Shown here: positions 14,855 to 28,061 of the stretch, piece by piece
Layout: each line of letters opens with the position of its first letter
Position numbering within the stretch: position 1 is the stretch's first letter
Assembly: GCA_963739455.1 (NCBI GenBank)
Contig: CAVUAK010000002.1
Location: 288,001 to 352,000 of the forward strand
DNA: 64,000 nucleotides
Reading direction: 5' to 3'
Origin: an uncultured Gemmatimonadales bacterium
Lineage (GTDB): Bacteria; Gemmatimonadota; Gemmatimonadetes; Gemmatimonadales; GWC2-71-9
The notes under the pieces: model-generated
The model's database searches: none
What the model saw: the letters and a program-made list of their open reading frames with translations, nothing else
Told to the model about the DNA's origin: nothing
Program-made: the position numbers and the translations under genes

Positions 14855-16026
14855 CTACATCAGCATGTGCTTTGCAACGTCGACCAGGTCCGCGAACGAC
14901 ACCTGCCGCAGGATGATGGGAAGGAAGGGCAGGACCGTCGCCACCAGCAGGGGCAGGAAGTCCTTGATCTCGATGGGGATCGGGCGCATTTCCACCACGT
15001 GGCCCACCACGCTGAACAGGTCCGCGGTCGTCGAGAAGTCGGGAACGGCGAGGGCGTCCGGGGTCAGGTCACCCGCCTTGGCGAGCCAGCGCTCCTCCAG
15101 GCGGGAGCCAAGCTGAGGTAGCGAGGGCGCCATAGGTCAGTTCCGCATCGTCTTGGGCGTCCCGCATCGGCTTCACGAAAGCCAGGAGCGGGCCGGCACA
15201 AATCAGGAGAATGAAGACCATTGTTGCCACGACGACCGGCGTCAACGTCGTCGTGCTGCGGCTGTCGTAGATCACCAGGTTGGCCAGCGTGCCGGCGATG
15301 GCGCTGCCGAACGCCAGGGCAAGCAGTGGAAAGGCCCGCAGTGATTGCCCGAGAAATGCGAGACCCCCCGCCTTGTCGGGATGGGACGCGACGATCCGCA
15401 CATCCATGTGCGCAATAGCGCCGCAGGCAGCGCATCCAGAGGAACAAGCGCCAGAACCAGGTCAGCAGCAGCGACATGAACAGGGGTTGGCTCACCAGGA
15501 GGCGCCACCAGCCGGCGTACGAGACACTGCGCCCGGTTTCGCCGCCGATGAGCAGCCAGTTCGCCGCGCCATACGAGATCCATGCCCGCGCTGACGCCAG
15601 TGTCATCGTGTAGGCCAGGACGAGGACGGCCAGCAACACCAGCTTCGAGCCGAGCAGGTTCCGGGTAGAGGTGAGGAGCGCGGTGAAGTCCGCCTGTCGG
15701 GAGGGCGGAATAAGCCGCGCCTCAATGAAATGACCCAGCACCCGGGTGAGCCACAGCCGGGCCGGCGCTTCAGCGATGACGAGCAGTGGAACCGCCACAA
15801 GGAAGCGGGTGTACGCCGCGAAATCCTGCAGCAGCGACGCCTGGCCCGTCCCGATCGCCAACCCCTGCAGCTGGGCGAGCACGGCCAGGGGAACCCAGGC
15901 CACGAGCACTGCAAGCAATGCCCGGCGCAGGACCGCCTTGTCCGCACCCGCAGGCAGGCGCAGGGCGTGCAGGAGGGACTGGAAGGGACCGGTGCCGAAC
16001 GGATCTGCGGTACCGGGATCAGTCAC
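14855..16026 (-). CDS. Multi-pass inner-membrane hypothetical protein (two frameshifts)
   Basis: Hydrophobic segments across ORFs 15064..16209, 15069..15407 and 14855..15133; HPDKAGGLAFLG and MRPIPI motifs. Confidence 0.7.
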
Positions 16027-16028
16027 GG

Positions 16029-16862
16029 CTACTTCTTCTCCTCGGGCTTGTGCGCATTCGGGTACAGCAGGGCGAAGATGATGCGGAGCTGGCTCGACGG
16101 ACCGTTGTCGGGATGCACCACATTGTAGTAGTACTGGACGCCGAGGTTGATGGGCCGCCGGCCCAACACCTGGGTTCGCGTAATACCGAGGCCGAGCGGA
16201 ACGGTCCATTCCTGGCCCGACGGCGCCGACCAGTTGGCCGTGATGATCGGCCCGGTGGCGATGGCCCAGCCCTTCCCGAAGTTGTAGTTGATGAAGGGCT
16301 GGATCAGGAGTTGGTTCACCTCAGGGTCCCCGCCAGCGTCGGCAAAGGTCCACAGCTGATTGGCCAGAAGGCCAATTACCCAACTGCCCCTCATCGTGAG
16401 GGCGACGGCCGTCGGGCCCACAGCCCACGAGCCGGTGCGGAAGAGCGGGTTCGTCGCAGCAGGCACCGAGAACTCCGGACCAATACCCCAAATGATCTTC
16501 CCTGGATGGGCCGGCGACAGAAATGTCTGGAAGATGATGTCTCCGATGCCGCCGACCTGTCCGCCATCCGGCGTGGGACTGCTGAGGTAGGGAACGATGG
16601 TCCGCGCGATCACGGTCCAGTCGGGCGTCACCTTGATCGGGATGACAGGCTGGATATTCAGGTTGAACAGGGTGCCATCCCCGAGACCTCCACCAGTGTT
16701 GAAGTTGAACTGGAACGGAACCGTGATCAGGTCGGCCACCGGGTTCTGCGTTTGCATGGCCAGTGCCGTGGCGTCAATGGCTGGCTTCTGCTGCGCCGCC
16801 AGCGCACTCGCCGCGAGGAGCATGCAGCCGGTGAATACTGTCGCACTCCGCACAATCCGCAT
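16029..16862 (-). CDS. Outer-membrane beta-barrel, MetA-pathway/'neuromedin U'-annotated transporter-like family
   Basis: Signal peptide, QNPVADLITVPFQFN, LNIQPVIP, QPFINYN, WTVPLG; alternating beta-strand pattern; GGAGG RBS. Confidence 0.8.
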   Translation of the reverse strand: MRIVRSATVFTGCMLLAASALAAQQKPAIDATALAMQTQNPVADLITVPFQFNFNTGGGLGDGTLFNLNIQPVIPIKVTPDWTVIARTIVPYLSSPTPDGGQVGGIGDIIFQTFLSPAHPGKIIWGIGPEFSVPAATNPLFRTGSWAVGPTAVALTMRGSWVIGLLANQLWTFADAGGDPEVNQLLIQPFINYNFGKGWAIATGPIITANWSAPSGQEWTVPLGLGITRTQVLGRRPINLGVQYYYNVVHPDNGPSSQLRIIFALLYPNAHKPEEKK

Positions 16863-20954: not shown

Positions 20955-23027
20955 CCTGCTCCTCGAGCAGGACGACAGCGAAGCCCTGCAACTCCACCGC
21001 CCCGGTCATCGACTCACCCTCGATACCGGGGCGAGTCGTATCCAGCATCAGGCGCCAGGGACCCGGGGGCAGGTGCTGGTGTACCGTTGCCTCGCCCCCG
21101 TTCATCAGCAGCACAATGCGAGTGGTGAGGTCCGGGGATTCTCCTGCCTCGACAGCACCCTGCACCTCCGTGTCGAGCAGGACCGCGCACGGATCGCGTG
21201 CTCGATCGTGCCAGTCGGCCTCGGACATGGCGCCGCCGGAAGCCCGCAGCCAGTGCGCCGCACCACCAGCGGCCCCCTGGCCGGGCAGGAACGTGGAAGT
21301 CCGGAACACGGTGTATCGCCGCCGCAGCGCGAGTACGCGGCGGGTGAACGCAAGCATGTCCCCGGATGCCGGTGAGGCAATCCAGGGCAACCAGCTCAGC
21401 GCGGAGTCCTGGCACCAGGGATTGTTGTTCCCCTGCTGGGTGCGGGCCAGCTCATCGCCCTGGCCCAGCATCGGGACGCCGAGTGAGAACGCGAGCGTCG
21501 CCATCATGCCCCGCGTGGCACGTTCACGGTGCTCGGCGTACGCGCGGATCGGCGGTGGGACCCTCTACTCCCCAGTTGCGGCTCTCGTTCCATTCGGAGC
21601 CGTCCCGATTGCGCTCACCATTGGCCAGGTTGTGCTTGCGCTCATAGGAGACGAGGTCCTGCAGCGTGAACCCGTCGTGGCACGCGATGAAGTTGATGCT
21701 CGCTTGCGGGGATCGCGCGTGCGAGAAGAGGTCACTCGAGCCGCTCAGGCGGGTGGCGAGCTCGCCCATATCGCCCGTACCGCGCCAGAAGCGCCGGACG
21801 GTGTCGCGGTAGCGGCCATTCCATTCGGCAAATCCTGCGGGAAACGCGCCTTGCTGATAGCCACCGGGACCGAGGTCCCACGGTTCAGCGATGAGCTTCA
21901 CGTGCTGGAGGTGCGGATCCGCCAGGATTTCCCGGAGGAGGGTCGCGCCGGCATCAAACGCCAGCGGATCCCGCCCGAGCACCGGGGCCAGGTCGAAGCG
22001 GAATCCGTCAACGTGCATCTCATTCACCCAGAACCGAAGGCTGTCGAGGATGAGCCGGCGCACCATCGGGTGGCGCGCGTCGAGTGTATTGCCGCACCCG
22101 GTGAAGTCCTCGTACATGGCGCCCGAGCCGTCGTGCTGCAGCCGGTAGTAGGCGGCGTTGTCGAGCCCGCGGAACGCCAGCGTCGGCCCGTCCACCGCGC
22201 CCTCTCCCGTGTGGTTGTACACGACATCCAGCAACACCTCGATGCCGGCGGCATGAAGCCGTCGCACCATCTCCCGGAATTCATGGCGCTCGCGGCCAGC
22301 GACGCTCGCGAAGCGGCGGTCGGGGGCAAAGAACCCGACCGTGGCATATCCCCAGTAGTTCGTGAGGCCGTTTCGCGCGAGCAGCGCGCTGTCGGCTGCG
22401 GGTTGAACGGGCAGGAGTTCCACCGCGGTGACGCCGAGGCCCTTGAGGTGCTCGACAACAGGCTCCGCAGACAGGCCAAGCCAGGTGCCCCGCAATGCCG
22501 GCGGCACGGCGGGATGCAGCGCCGTCATTCCCTTCACGTGGCACTCGTAGATCACGCTCTCGGACCAGGACACCGCCGGCGGACGATCACCCTGCCAGTC
22601 GAAATCGTCCGCGACAACCACACTGCGGGGAAGGTGCGCCGATGAATCAGTGGTGTCAGGATGCAGGGGTCCACTGGTTCCGGCTCGATGCGCGACGCGA
22701 AGACTCTCATGCCACCGGATTGCTCCGTCGATGACGCGCGCGTAGGGATCGAGCAGCAGCTTGGCGGGATTGAACAGGTGTCCCGCACCTGGATTCCACG
22801 GGCCATACGCGCGGAAACCATAGCGTGAGCCCGGGCGGGCCACCGCGCTGCGGAGGTGCCACATTCCATCGCCATCCCGCTCCATCGGAAGGCGTGTGGC
22901 GGTCATCGTCGAGCACCAGCTCGATCGACGTCGCGTGGCCGGAAAAGAGCCTGAAGGTGGTGGCGCTGCCGTCCCATGTCGCGCCGAGTGGCGGGTGTCC
23001 GGTGCCGTCGCCCACAGCTGGTGTCAT
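20929..23027 (-). CDS. glgX: Glycogen debranching enzyme, GH13 (frameshifted)
   Basis: PLGATWDG, NPAKLLLDPYAR, NYWGY, DVVYNHTGEG, GFRFDLA, IAEPWD, CHDGFTL, QQGNNNPWCQD. Confidence 0.92.
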
Positions 23028-23329
23028 GCGCGGAACGATAACAAGCGAGCCGGTGCGTTGTGGGGTGACCGAGAATCGTCAGGGGATGCGACACCATGCA
23101 CCGAACTGCGCGCGCCCGGGATCGAAGCGGCCAGGAAGCGATTCTGTCGTCGTCCTGATACAGCCTCGGTCCACGAGGCTCGGATATGGGTCGAACGGCC
23201 TACGTGCAAGGGGCTGCACCCGCCTCTGCATACTGTTATTGCTGAATGGCTTACCGAAGGACCGATGTGGGCGGAGTCGATGGCACGACTCCGGTATTAC
23301 CAAGGGCAACCTCAACAGAAGGCTGCCCC

Positions 23330-23539
23330 ATGTCGTTGCTCGAGTACGTGACGCCGCGCAAGCTTGAGGACCCGGCTGACTACACGACGTCCAAGGCCAT
23401 GCTCGTCAAGGAACGGCGCACCTGGCTCACCAGCGGAGCCAACGTCATCGAGGGGCGCGTGTGGCGCCACGCCGAGATCGTGATCGAGGCGAAGCACTCG
23501 CAGTGGGACCGCGAGAACTGCCGCCAGCGGGTCGCCTAG
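23330..23539 (+). CDS. Small hypothetical protein (69 aa)
   Basis: ATG at 23330; mostly G/C third positions; converges on the rpsD stop; no recognised motif. Confidence 0.5.
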   Translation: MSLLEYVTPRKLEDPADYTTSKAMLVKERRTWLTSGANVIEGRVWRHAEIVIEAKHSQWDRENCRQRVA

Positions 23540-23545
23540 GCTCGG

Positions 23546-24142
23546 CTAGCGCGAGTAGAACTCCACGACGAGCGGCAGCTGACAGATCACGGGGATCTGG
23601 GTTGCCTCGGGAAGCTCGCGCAGCCGGGCGCCGTCACCCCGAAGTTCCAGATATGACGGTGCACGGGTGGCCTCCATGGCCATCACCACCTGCGGAATGG
23701 CGCGAGCCTTCTCCGTGAGCGCCACCTCGTCGCCCGGCTTCACCGCGTGGCTCGGGAAGGAAACCCGCCGCCCGTTCAGCTTCACGTGCCCGTGCACCAC
23801 CAGCTGGCGCGCAGCGAAGATGGTGCGCGCGTAGCCGGCGCGAAGCACGAGCGCGTCGATGCGCGTCTCCAGCAACTGCAGGAGGGCCGCGCCCACGTTA
23901 CCACCCCGTCGTGACGCTTCCTCGAAGTAATTCCTGAGCTGCCGCTCACCAACATTGTACTGCGCCCGCAGCCGCTGCTTCTCCATGAGCTGCCGCTTGT
24001 AGTTGGACATCTTGCCCGGCCGTTGGTTCTGGCCGTGCTGCCCCGGCGTGCCAGGACGCCGGTCCAGGTGCTTCTGCGCCTTGGGCGTGAGGGGAATGCC
24101 GAGCTGGCGCGAGATGCGCACCTTGGGACCGCGGAGATTCAT
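23546..24142 (-). CDS. rpsD: 30S ribosomal protein S4, stand-alone, zinc-ligand-free form
   Basis: GPKVRISRQLG, PGQHG, QLMEKQRLRAQY, LETRIDALVLRAG, ARQLVVHGH, VVEFYSR; no N-terminal Cys cluster; no rpsK or rpoA neighbours. Confidence 0.95.
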   Translation of the reverse strand: MNLRGPKVRISRQLGIPLTPKAQKHLDRRPGTPGQHGQNQRPGKMSNYKRQLMEKQRLRAQYNVGERQLRNYFEEASRRGGNVGAALLQLLETRIDALVLRAGYARTIFAARQLVVHGHVKLNGRRVSFPSHAVKPGDEVALTEKARAIPQVVMAMEATRAPSYLELRGDGARLRELPEATQIPVICQLPLVVEFYSR

Positions 24143-24381
24143 GCGTCGCTTCCTTCAAAGCGGATGCCGAGTGACTGCTCGAGAGAACGGTAGATCTGCT
24201 GGAGGTTCGTGTTGGCCTCACCCAGTGCCGAGGCCAGCGCACCGAGACCCTCATCGGTGACGTGCGCGGTAATGCCGCCCACCGAGATATGGATGGAGCC
24301 ACAGCTGCACCGCTCCACTGCCACGAAGTCATTGGCTGCGAGCAGCTGGAGGGAGCCGCACTGGACTGAACGCGGTGTCAT
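24139..24381 (-). CDS. Small hypothetical protein with CxCGxxH motif
   Basis: 80 aa, VERCSCGSIHISVG; GGAG upstream; stop overlaps the rpsD ATG (ATGA). Confidence 0.7.
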   Translation of the reverse strand: MTPRSVQCGSLQLLAANDFVAVERCSCGSIHISVGGITAHVTDEGLGALASALGEANTNLQQIYRSLEQSLGIRFEGSDA

Positions 24382-24400
24382 CGGGTCTCCGGGTCAGGCA

Positions 24401-24437
24401 TTGAGAATGACGCGCCACGGTTGAGAATGAATGTCAA
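24401..24437. promoter_or_regulatory. Fur/Zur-family operator-like site plus a repeated half-site
   Basis: TTGAGAATGAATGTCAA (24421-24437), an imperfect 8-1-8 palindrome; TTGAGAATGA repeated at 24401-24410. Confidence 0.6.
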
Positions 24438-24474
24438 CCGATATTTCCAGCGCCAACAATGTAACCCGAAGCAA

Positions 24475-24948
24475 TTACTCGGCAATAGGAAATCCTACGG
24501 AGGCCAGCCGATCGGCCGGCACGGCAAGCAGCAGGTCGATTCGCCGCGAAAGGAGGTTCCGCGCCCCCTCGAATGCGCGCTGCTTCACCTCATTCGATCC
24601 CTCCACCTCGGCGGGGTCGTCCATGCCCCAATGGGCGAATGTTGGCTGACCAGGAAAGACCGGGCACGCTTCCTTCGCATTGTCACAGACAGTGATGATC
24701 AGGTCCCAGTGCTGGTTCACGAGCCCGTCGATCCCGCGCGGTTGCCTGCCCTCCCAGGAAATGCCGATGTCGGCAAGTGCCTGAATGGCGTATGGATTGA
24801 CTCGCGCCGCCGGCCGGGAGCCGGCGCTCTCGGCGTGAAAGCGGCCCTGCCCCTTCCGGTTGAGGAGTGCCTCAGCCATCTGGCTGCGCGCCGAATTGCC
24901 GGTGCAGAGGAACAGCACGCGATACGGCTGCCTCGCCAGACTAGACAT
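24475..24948 (-). CDS. arsC: Arsenate reductase, thioredoxin-coupled LMW-PTPase type
   Basis: VLFLCTGNSARSQMAE, ITVCDNAKEACP, HWGMDDPA. Confidence 0.92.
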   Translation of the reverse strand: MSSLARQPYRVLFLCTGNSARSQMAEALLNRKGQGRFHAESAGSRPAARVNPYAIQALADIGISWEGRQPRGIDGLVNQHWDLIITVCDNAKEACPVFPGQPTFAHWGMDDPAEVEGSNEVKQRAFEGARNLLSRRIDLLLAVPADRLASVGFPIAE

Positions 24949-25600
24949 GCTTCGTTCCCTTTCTGAGATAGTCATATGCGACGACGGCGAGGCCCGCGCC
25001 GACCATCGGGCCAACCCAGTAGATCCACTGCTCCTGCCAAATGTCATTCGCGAAGGCTGGTCCGAAGCTGCGCGCCGGATTCATGCTCGCCCCTGTCAGC
25101 GGCCCCGCCATGAGTGCCTCGCCTCCCACCGTCGCGCCGATGGCGAGGCCGGCCACCGCGCCCGCCACGCGTGCGTCGGTCGCCACGGCCATGATCACGA
25201 GCATGAGGAAAAATGTCAGGACACCCTCGAGGGCGACGGCGGATCCGGGAGGCAGGATGGTGGTCGTCATGCTCCCGCGAGCTGACGCACCGAGTAGCAC
25301 GCGCAGGAAGAGGGCGGCGACGGTGGCACCGGTGAGTTGCGCGCCGACATAAGGGACCACGTCAGCTCGGGGGAAGCGTCGGGCCAGCCAGAAGCCGAGT
25401 GTCACGGCGGGATTGAGGTGCGCGCCCGAGATATGGCCAAGGGCATACACTGCGGCGATGAGGACAAAGGCGAATGCCAACGCGACGCCGGTGTGGGTTA
25501 CCGAATCAGGCACGAGACGATCAACCGCCGCTGCCCCCGGGCCAACCAGGACGAGCATGAAGGTGCCGACTGCTTCTGCGGCAAGCCGCGCGCCTTTCAC
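24941..25600 (-). CDS. MIP-family channel (aquaporin/aquaglyceroporin) in the ars operon
   Basis: ISGAHLNPAVT and GASMNPARSFGPA; GTG at 25600 overlaps the arsN2 stop. Confidence 0.92.
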   Translation of the reverse strand: MKGARLAAEAVGTFMLVLVGPGAAAVDRLVPDSVTHTGVALAFAFVLIAAVYALGHISGAHLNPAVTLGFWLARRFPRADVVPYVGAQLTGATVAALFLRVLLGASARGSMTTTILPPGSAVALEGVLTFFLMLVIMAVATDARVAGAVAGLAIGATVGGEALMAGPLTGASMNPARSFGPAFANDIWQEQWIYWVGPMVGAGLAVVAYDYLRKGTKHV

Positions 25601-26046
25601 TTCGACCCTGCCATCCGACGCATGACCACCGCCGAAGCCGGACAAGCCACGGCGAACTCCACGGAATTGCGGATCCCATGCGGCACGTCGCTGCGCGCCG
25701 TCACCTCGAAACCACGGCGATGGAAGAATGCCTCGGCGGTGTCGGTAAGAAGGAAAGTGTGGCGAGCGCCGAGTTCCCAGGCCATCGCGAGGGCGGCGTC
25801 CGAAAGGAGCGCCCCGAGACCGCCACCACGGTGTGAAGGCGCCACGACCACCGACCGCAGCAGTGCGGCGTCACCATAGAGCTCGAGGCCTGCCGCCCCC
25901 ACAACGAGATCGTCGTCCTCGGCGACCAGAAAGTGCTCGAGCTCCTCAGAGAGGCCATCGAGCGGCAGCCTGGCCGCAGCAAGGAGCTCGCAGACGCCAC
26001 GACGATCGGCGGCGCCTGCGATGCGAATGGCGGCTCTCGTGCTCAC
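25597..26046 (-). CDS. arsN2: GNAT N-acetyltransferase, ArsN2-like
   Basis: [47 protein letters not shown]; ars operon context. Confidence 0.85.
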
Positions 26047-26867
26047 GCAGCCGGCTTCCGCGCCCGGATGAATGCCCCCATGACGCGGCCGCCCACTTCG
26101 CGCGCCAGGACTTCGGTATCGAGGCCCGCCCCGCCAAGGAACGCCGCGGCGTCCTCAAACTCGTAGACTCGCGTCGGCTCGATGGAGACGTCGGTGAAGC
26201 CAGTCGCCTCCAGCATCGAGATGAACTGCCTGCTCCTCGAGCGCGCCTGCCACGCAGCCGACCCAGAGTTCCATGCTGTGGCGCACCGCGGGCGGTACAT
26301 CGCCCCGGATCACCACGTCCGACACCGCCAGCCTGCCACCCGGCTTGAGCACCCGAAAGGCCTCGGCGAAGACCTGGCGCTTGTCCACCGACAGGTTGAT
26401 GACGCAGTTCGAGATGATCACGTCCACCGTATTGGCAGGCAGCGGGATCTCCTCGATGGTGCCCTTGAGGAACTCGACGTTTGTGGCGCCGGCCTTCAGG
26501 CTTGTTCGACCGGGCGAGGGCCAGCATCTCGTCAGTCATGTCCAGGCCATACGCCTTGCCGGTGGGCCCGACGCGCTGCGCCGAGAGCAGCACGTCGATG
26601 CCGCCGCCGCTGCCGAGGTCGAGTACGACTTCGCCTGCGTGCAGGTCCGCGAGGGCGGTGGGGTTGCCGCACCCGAGCGACGCGAGGACTGCGGTCTCGG
26701 GCAAGGGTCGCCGTCTGCTCGGCGCTGTAGAGGTTGGCAGTGATCGGGTCATCGGATCCGGCGCCGCAGGATCCGCCGCAGCAACTGTTCGACTGCCCCT
26801 GCACTACCCTCAGGGCGGCGCCGGCGTAGGCCTGGCGCACCGCTTCCCTCGTGTCGGTGTTGCTCAT
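26043..26867 (-). CDS. arsM: Arsenite S-adenosylmethionine methyltransferase (frameshifted)
   Basis: [52 protein letters not shown]. Confidence 0.93.
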
Positions 26868-27260: not shown

Positions 27261-27331
27261 TGTCAAGCGGGGCCACGACCGAATGACCGGCCCCGGATTG
27301 CGTCGGCGCGACCGACTTGCTAGCCTGCCGC

Positions 27332-27947
27332 ATGACCGACTCAACTCCCAAGGGAACGCCGCTCGGCGCCGGCCGACTGGAAGCGTTCAGCGACGGCGTC
27401 CTCGCCATCATCATCACGATCATGGTGCTCGAGCTGAAGGTGCCGCACGACGACTCGGTCGCGGCGCTTGCTCCCCTGATACCGGTGTTACTGAGCTACC
27501 TGCTCAGCTTCGTGTACGTCGGCATCTACTGGACCAACCACCACCACATGATGCATACCTGCGCCAGGGTGACGGGCCCGATACTCTGGGCCAATCTTCA
27601 CCTGCTCTTCTGGCTGTCGCTGGTGCCGTTCGTCACCGGATGGATGGGCGAGAATCACTTCGCGTCGATCCCGACAGCCTTGTACGGCGTGGTGCTCTTC
27701 ATGGCAGGGATGGCCTACGTGATCCTGCAGCAGCAGATCATCGCGTCGCAGGGTCCGGACTCGTTGCTGACAGCGCGCCGTGCAGGGCGACCGGAAGGGG
27801 AAGGCATCCGAACTGCTGTATCTGGTGGCGATCCTGCTGGCATTTCGGTGGCGGTGGGCCGCGCAGGCGATCTACGTCTTCGTGGCGCTGATGTGGCTGG
27901 TGCCCGACAAGCGCATCGAGGAGACACTCGCCAGCCGGGGGAGCTGA
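27332..27947 (+). CDS. TMEM175/DUF1211 family potassium channel (frameshifted)
   Basis: RLEAFSDGVLAIIITIMVLEL signature, YWTNHHH, NLHLLFWLSLVPF; C-terminus WLVPDKRIE in a shifted frame. Confidence 0.9.
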
Positions 27948-27975
27948 CCAGTGAGAAGCCTGGTTTTGTATCAAG

Positions 27976-28061
27976 TGCCCGGAGCAGGACTCGAACCTGC
28001 ACGAGGATTGCTCCTCAACGGATTTTAAGTCCGCGACGTCTACCAGTTTCGCCATCCGGGC
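27976..28061 (-). tRNA. tRNA-Leu(TAA)
   Basis: GCCCGGATGGCGAAACTGGTAGACG...GCGGA-CTTAAAA-TCCGT, long variable arm, GGTTCGAGTCC T-loop, acceptor TCCGGGC-A; CCA not encoded. Confidence 0.95.

Follow-up and report, generated by a model that had tools for sequence, protein, structure and literature searches.

The window, the whole 64,000-nt stretch of Gemmatimonadales DNA analyzed here, carries on its minus strand a compact unit of two translationally coupled genes behind a putative promoter and operator. The distal gene is a 198-aa S4 ORF (23546-24142, minus strand) that scores 196.7 bits with the rpsD model TIGR01017, against a cut-off of 177.2, and passes PRK05327 over its full length; profile and sequence comparison identify its product as a second, Cys-free ribosomal protein uS4. 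The proximal gene (24139-24381, minus strand) encodes an 80-aa protein with the motif CSCGSIH, and its stop codon and the start codon of S4 overlap in the tetranucleotide ATGA (24139-24142). A Shine-Dalgarno-like GGAG precedes the small ORF (24385-24392, minus strand), and further upstream lies a Fur-type palindrome of 23 bp (24418-24440), with a 17-bp core at 24421-24437 that sits 40-56 nt before the small-ORF ATG. The palindrome follows, by about 20 nt, a promoter that we infer from conservation only: a -35 hexamer TTGCCG (24480-24485, minus strand; retained in 9/9 aligned sequences reaching it) and a -10 hexamer TACATT (24458-24463, minus strand), which is separated from the -35 by 16 nt and reads TAGATT in some of the relatives. 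A consensus promoter scan returned just a chance-level site on the plus strand and does not list the putative -35. A partly conserved second half-site (24401-24410), 20 nt from the first, may serve as a second repressor dimer site. The initial annotation had described an intact S4 gene without N-terminal Cys, ATGA-coupled to an 80-aa Cys/His ORF and placed behind a palindrome, and all of this is borne out by the sequence and the rpsD models.

The N-terminal domain of the window S4 is free of Cys and, in alignment, lacks the short insertion that bears the second Cys pair. With no N-terminal Cys pairs, the insertion missing (seven residues as defined by Chen 2009, a gap of 6 residues in the alignment used here) and PGxHG retained, the protein belongs to the C-(IV) type of that study (PMC3087516). 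The four-Cys motif is present in 0/92 of its closest homologues, and the closest named ones are from Gemmatimonadales. The initial annotation had proposed looking for a second rpsD with four Cys in the alpha operon; a copy with CxxC and CxxxxC is found there in the same genome, so the window gene is a second copy. The two proteins are ~41% identical. In a 72-row S4 tree with a midpoint root, all 17 four-Cys rows are set apart (support 100/99) from the window S4, whose own clade consists of 15 Cys-free rows drawn from this family and related metagenome contigs (support 98/95). Nine metagenome matches (distant S4s), the second match in G036 (E 6.9e-4) and P0015/P0017 (repeat proteins) were left out. 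Synonymous:non-synonymous codon changes against relatives number 63:6 and 73:10 for S4 and 28:5 and 28:11 for the small ORF; both genes are under purifying selection, which is strong on S4. The contigs of one RNA run (0.05 share) reach S4 only by a diverged piece and leave the promoter and small ORF uncovered. Second copies of other C+/C- ribosomal proteins were not found in the 3.6-Mb genome by a crude motif search, which missed L31, L33 and L28 altogether. Convergent with S4 lies a 69-aa ORF (23330-23539, plus strand) with no Pfam or NCBIfam match; it is 84-93% identical in 9/12 related loci, and one RNA-run contig matches it closely.

Upstream of the module, beside a tRNA-Leu (27975-28061), stands an ars cluster whose last gene is an arsC-type reductase (24475-25047, minus strand; Pfam/NCBIfam); further upstream come the genes of a MIP channel, arsN2, a methyltransferase with a frameshift, and arsR. 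Because arsC ends inside the putative promoter, overlapping its -35, and a scan of the stretch between arsC and the module found no terminator, read-through is possible. The promoter is retained with different upstream DNA and no ars genes in G007 and L052, which argues that the module is self-contained, and we rejected arsenic as its main purpose since promoter and box persist without ars genes. The description of the surroundings as an accessory patch following a metalloid-resistance operon stands in part: presence is indeed patchy, with the paralog in 3/11 other same-genus genomes, but GC content is unremarkable and the ars neighbor is confined to this lineage. L050 and L051 lack the MIP channel gene (24941-25645) and a TMEM175-type channel gene (~27270-27975) at these positions, which shows gene gain and loss in the ars patch next to the tRNA-Leu. 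Apparent frameshifts at 14855-16209 (membrane protein), 21524-23097 (glgX-like) and 25946-26867 (the methyltransferase) are of the kind that decay or errors in long-read assembly would produce.

In a pattern scan of the genome, the best of the similar sites lies at C1:1479996, immediately upstream of a gene for a cytochrome c/FTR1 iron permease. Two matrices agree on the rank of the window box. The first, made from 10 boxes ahead of distant small-ORF homologues that were chosen by likeness to the Fur consensus and include the G417/L046 box, puts the FTR1 site first in the whole genome (21.5 bits) and the window box second (13.6 bits). The same motif precedes FTR1 in 15/24 loci of relatives, and the second matrix, built from these sites as picked by the first, again ranks the window box second, at 16.8 bits; neither matrix contains the window site, and both are not fully independent of the Fur consensus. 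Its score was equalled by 1/1000 Markov shuffles of the intergenic stretch. The window box, the Fur-family palindrome of the initial annotation at 40-56 nt, is beyond chance, and it is degenerate against the FTR1 site (13.6 vs 21.5 bits). Its resemblance to the operators of iron-uptake genes and its place just behind the putative promoter are as in operators of a Fur regulon. It is retained in L048, L052 and L053 and weakened in L050 and G007.

Boxes recognized by Fur, by PerR and in some cases by Zur resemble one another. One Fur-family gene is found in the genome, in the C1:1964332 region (locus L004), and a second, weak match is another kind of regulator; since the genome is 84% complete, a Zur or PerR gene may be missing. 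The gene found reaches E 6.6e-29 to Fur vs 6e-18 to a Zur/FurB in the PDB and scores 112 bits with the NCBIfam model of Fur, 88.8 with PerR and 50.1 with Zur. Within 1.5 kb on each side of znuA, which sits inside an operon with a start possibly further upstream, no site exceeds 6.8 and 3.0 bits with the two matrices, and no znuA-near site is among the top genome-wide sites; a 10.9-bit site lies downstream of znuA at C3:458594. We read the window box as a predicted Fur operator, with PerR as the main alternative within the family. Iron- and Fur-dependent control of the unit is, in our judgment, quite likely, and the switch on the spare S4 looks iron-sensing, not zinc-sensing as expected.

A comparison across Myxococcota, the phylum of G415, links the box to copy number. 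Cys-free S4 is matched at E<=1e-55 in 64/301 genomes, and among the best 30 of these 64, a box of at least 12 bits lies within 1.5 kb upstream in 1/30 and downstream in 0/30 (shuffles, 0/600). The proposition that all Cys-free Myxococcota S4 genes are Fur-controlled therefore failed, and a signal emerged only after sorting by copy number. A family search finds no other S4 in 28 of these best 30 genomes and a C+ copy in 2, and none of the 28 sole-copy genomes has a box of at least 12 bits within 1.5 kb. Two S4 matches occur in 5/301 genomes, one of which (G818) was left out as a split alpha-operon gene, leaving four true two-copy genomes, and all four of these found among the 301 have a Fur-type box at the spare S4 gene or at the operon that contains it. 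The boxes of G621 and G658 score 16.2 bits, each equalled by 1/1000 shuffles, and that of G650 scores 24.3 bits (0/1000 shuffles); in G700 a 14.1-bit box 3.1 kb upstream heads a TonB receptor-HmuY-small ORF-S4 series, with HemS nearby. Under the same 1.5-kb rule, the contrast is 3/4 two-copy vs 0/28 sole-copy genomes, with a Fisher p of 0.0008 that is overstated because kin are not independent. Two further two-copy genomes, reached via the small ORF, are G416 (20.0 bits at -40) and G419 (26.7 bits, with ahpC-S4 behind the box). S4 and the small ORF form a divergent pair with one common box in G417. Downstream of the boxed Cys-free S4 there (L046, 2383-3756, for both genes) comes a gene resembling L3 (Pfam Ribosomal_L3, E 4.7e-11), among short-chain hydrolase neighbors; it may be a second ribosomal paralog of this unit.

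Expression data from Myxococcus xanthus point in the same direction. The supplement of PMC9548883 lists MXAN_6805 as a second rpsD, with a putative Fur box in the table comment. It rises with iron-uptake genes in predation (log2FC 2.2 and 1.8), and its profile (947/1127, then 189-230, then 557-1103) follows that of the Fur-box receptor MXAN_6911 (99/94, 10-16, 69-128), unlike that of MXAN_3325 (PMC9548883). The main text of that paper names MXAN_6908 as the S4 paralog and calls its role unexplored. We rejected MXAN_6908, a glucose-6-phosphate isomerase in the supplement, where rpsD is MXAN_6805, and also MXAN_6608, a different enzyme there. Judging from Table 1 of Chen, MXAN_6805 would be the Cys-free copy. 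Both S4 genes are at similar expression during growth in the data of PMC6791715, so the paralog is not silent.

The paralog is rare in the window's own class, with matches in 14/401 genomes at E<=1e-42 (a tally that includes the unpublished G086), and the contrast between box and copy number is poor in this phylum. Among the two-copy Gemmatimonadota (G000, G007, G009, G010, G037 and G094), only G000 has a box of at least 12 bits (1/6): the G007 box scores 7.9 bits, that of G009 is lost, and G010, with an intact pair, and G037 have none. Boxes are found in 2/11 sole-copy genomes (G170, 12.4 bits at -57; G172, 26.7 bits at -1052). In G094 the spare S4, of the same paralog clade, stands behind an MntR/DtxR-type gene and an NRAMP-like transporter as third gene of the unit (L148, 4835-7620), a wiring of this clade to another metal regulator, and the palindrome upstream is presumably a DtxR-type motif. 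The window S4 clade provides the only S4 found in 8 same-family genomes, with rpsK abutting rpoA in 3/3 of those where rpsK was found; among the sole-copy genomes tested, rpsK abuts rpoA in 4/5, and rpsK was not found in the fifth. By this gene order, the Cys-free gene has taken the place of the original S4. In G170, G172 and G179 (L191-L193), of the same family, the alpha operon is without rpsD and the paralog is the only S4 found, a replacement that matters for ribosomal-protein phylogenies.

The small protein belongs to an unnamed family of iron regulons with the pattern C-x(16)-CxCGxxH. Pfam and NCBIfam searches with it return nothing at E<=0.1, Foldseek gives no match at E<=0.001, the ESM Atlas holds neither the protein nor a homologue, and a plasmid search with one family member found no match. 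The family comprises 34 matches among 50% representatives and 66 by profile. In a set selected by motif, CxC, G and H are retained in 86/87 collected members and the third, upstream Cys in 79/82 members long enough to show the position. Because these residues are conserved, the protein is probably metal-binding via C8, C25, C27 and H31. Its structure model (pLDDT 90.5) has four strands and a long helix; a wide structural search gives weak matches to PC4/PUR/COMM folds (Z 4.7-5.5, within the range of common arrangements), the best at Z 5.5 with rmsd 2.5 over 60 aligned residues.

A Fur-type box lies just upstream of the small ORF in 10/10 loci of the genome collection. Myxococcota contribute 24 further matches in 22/301 genomes. 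A scan of these 24 loci that took in at most three ORFs of each finds a box of at least 12 bits within 250 nt in 9 (one of which served in matrix training) and TonB, HmuY, HemS, FTR1 or ExbD genes next to another 7, 16/24 in total. One boxed small-ORF locus (L097) is beside a CobW/COG0523 gene, and such genes are usually zinc-linked. In the window's phylum, the protein is present in 2/401 genomes, with one more weak match; G063 was left out as a weak match inside a 633-aa frame. The small ORF is whole in 4 of 11 near relatives, has lesions in 6 and is cut by a contig end in 1; some of the lesions may stem from misassembly of short metagenome contigs. The small protein is a member of an iron-regulon family that is sometimes carried on the S4 transcript. 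In G037 (L009, 1498-2488), a DUF6686-like CxxCG ORF (Pfam E 1.1e-4) directly precedes a different Cys-free S4 and may be distantly analogous to the small protein; hhalign compares the two at a probability of 4.5%.

The alpha-operon S4 aligns with its best PDB match, which we take to be the Thermus protein, at E 1.1e-71 with all four Cys in register. Thermus thermophilus uS4 binds a [4Fe-4S] cluster whose function is called poorly understood, and the available text of the papers reports Fe-S in S4 for Thermus only (PMC10450194, PMC11791143). By analogy, the alpha-operon S4 of this genome probably carries a [4Fe-4S] cluster as well, and the "zinc-free" frame first placed on the window S4 is probably wrong, given that in the only solved example these papers report, the Cys bind an Fe-S cluster. 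The more general proposal of a metal-regulated replacement S4 remains the best reading, based on a Cys-free second copy, a four-Cys S4 in the alpha operon and a real Fur-family box.

We lean toward a two-gene unit under Fur repression, whose role would be to provide S4 without iron at times of iron shortage. When Fe(II) is sufficient, Fur would sit on the operator just behind the promoter and keep the unit off, and ribosomes would use the alpha-operon S4, its four Cys probably with a [4Fe-4S] cluster as in Thermus. As iron falls, Fur would leave and the Cys-free S4 would be made. We expect that this S4 enters ribosomes, where it would bind early and let 30S assembly continue without a supply of clusters, sparing up to four Fe per new ribosome. 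The small protein, a general member of iron regulons and probably metal-binding, would lead the transcript and couple S4 translation while being dispensable for S4. A Fur-controlled Cys-free copy beside a four-Cys S4 with Fe-S is what iron sparing would predict, and we give Fe-S sparing as the reason for the switch a slight preference.

An unlikely alternative is that the spare S4 is a general insurance against metal and oxidation stress, in which thiol-bound cofactors fail under low Fe, low Mn, peroxide or arsenite; each lineage would place the gene under a regulator that it happens to have available (Fur, PerR, MntR, or ArsR by read-through), and iron saving would be incidental. The MntR/DtxR-NRAMP-S4 unit of G094 with its presumed DtxR-type palindrome, the ahpC-S4 pair of G419, the terminator not found in the scan behind arsC and the PerR models that also score on the regulator are consistent with such wiring. 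The informative neighbors are, however, mostly iron or heme uptake genes, in G007 and L052, which are without the ars genes, the module still has a promoter and box of its own, and the paralog of M. xanthus follows an iron receptor in the supplement of PMC9548883.

We consider it rather unlikely that the window S4 is a horizontally acquired gene in transit, brought in together with a promoter from an iron regulon, without a special role, and on its way either to decay or to becoming the sole S4. Such a course would fit the patchy same-genus presence (3/11), the module lesions in 6/11 near relatives and the 8 same-family genomes in which this clade is the sole S4, with rpsK abutting rpoA wherever rpsK was found (3/3). 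Strong purifying selection on S4 speaks against it, as do the Myxococcota, where the box is kept beside a C+ copy and absent in 28 sole-copy genomes, and the lesions that may be assembly errors reduce its support from near relatives.

The initial annotation gave the small protein a more specific part, as a dedicated partner of S4. In such a role it could act as a chaperone or exchange factor, taking the cluster-bearing S4 out or putting the spare one in. The order small ORF then S4 recurs in the window's lineage, G010 and G700, the pair shares a box in G417, the weakly similar DUF6686-like ORF precedes the spare S4 in G037, and the Cys are retained almost throughout the family. Against this, S4 adjoins the small ORF in 1/24 Myxococcota loci and 2/10 other loci; G415 and G418 hold the small protein with a C+ copy as their only S4; the small ORF is deleted while S4 stays open in 4 near relatives, once in frame with the coupling preserved (L050); and it is missing upstream of 13 other class-level S4 homologues examined (including the unpublished G086). 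A dedicated partner is therefore improbable. Zinc control through Zur, which the initial annotation allowed for and which governs the C- paralogs of L31, L33, L36, S14, S18, L28 and L32 (PMC11672702 section 4.2.1), could draw on the incomplete genome and the one small-ORF locus beside CobW, but it is very improbable, because the box matches the FTR1 motif and znuA is without a site, the sole Fur-family gene found is nearest Fur, the neighbors are heme, siderophore and ferritin genes, and Chen 2009 reports no Zur sites near S4 paralogs in the text available (PMC3087516).

Returning to the Fur-repressed, iron-sparing unit, part of what it assembles is already known: Cys-free S4 paralogs, and a putative Fur box on one of them in a supplementary table (PMC9548883). 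In the open literature we found nothing that connects the Fe-S cluster of uS4 with paralogs under Fur control; subscription papers, theses, bioRxiv supplements and regulon databases may hold such a link. The accessible parts of PMC3050691, PMC13689440 and PMC8141631 have nothing on S4 and iron, and those of the 2024 review PMC11672702 do not mention uS4 or rpsD. The small CxCGxxH family was likewise not found described in the open literature that we covered.

A broader generalization is tentative, and we place it somewhat below an even chance: four-Cys uS4 would carry Fe-S across many bacteria and make the ribosome a sizeable iron sink, Cys-free paralogs would be the first iron-sparing ribosomal paralogs, with Fur switching cells to a cluster-free 30S, CxCGxxH proteins would handle the released iron or cluster, and loss of the C+ copy would leave the spare constitutive and its box to decay. 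If true, C+ loss and box decay would explain the scattered C- S4 lineages, and ribosome remodeling would respond to iron besides zinc, at a protein with which 30S assembly begins and by which decoding accuracy is set. The proposal offers an answer to a question raised in 2009, why S4 paralogs are without Zur sites (PMC3087516), and a physiological meaning for the Fe-S cluster of Thermus S4. Cells short of iron may swap out an Fe-S-bearing part of the ribosome, and M. xanthus has both S4 genes as well as a furA mutant. A further outcome of the analysis is a family of small iron-regulon proteins that has no name.

Among known systems, HemP is a small protein at the head of iron-regulated units. 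The window's small protein would head such a unit in the same way and resembles HemP/HmuP and DUF6686 proteins in being small, but among 30 members of its family none has a Pfam match to HemP or DUF6686; HemP was not found in 5/5 genomes tried, nor DUF6686 in the window's genome. MXAN_6805 is, like the window S4, a second S4 with a putative Fur box, and differs in that no small-ORF partner is evident in the flanking rows of the supplement (PMC9548883). With Thermus uS4, this genome's alpha-operon S4 shares the CxxC...CxxxxC motif, whereas the papers, in the text available, draw no link from the cluster to paralogs or Fur (PMC10450194, PMC11791143). Chen 2009, as far as its available text goes, classes S4 as zinc-binding, lists 26 two-copy genomes, leaves paralog regulation open and does not use the word "iron" (PMC3087516). 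The arrangement of its C-(IV) paralogs is that of the window genome, with a C+ copy in the alpha operon and elsewhere a Cys-free copy that has no Cys-pair insertion and keeps PGxHG; the window copy is set apart by its Fur-type box and coupled small ORF. The closest functional parallel is with the Zur-repressed C- paralogs, in which a metal-free protein likewise replaces a Cys-liganded one under a Fur-family repressor. The unit would be the iron counterpart of the Zur-controlled L31/L33/S14 paralogs, with iron and Fur probably in place of zinc and Zur, and unlike those proteins, S4 is an early assembly protein, so its replacement would take place in new ribosomes.
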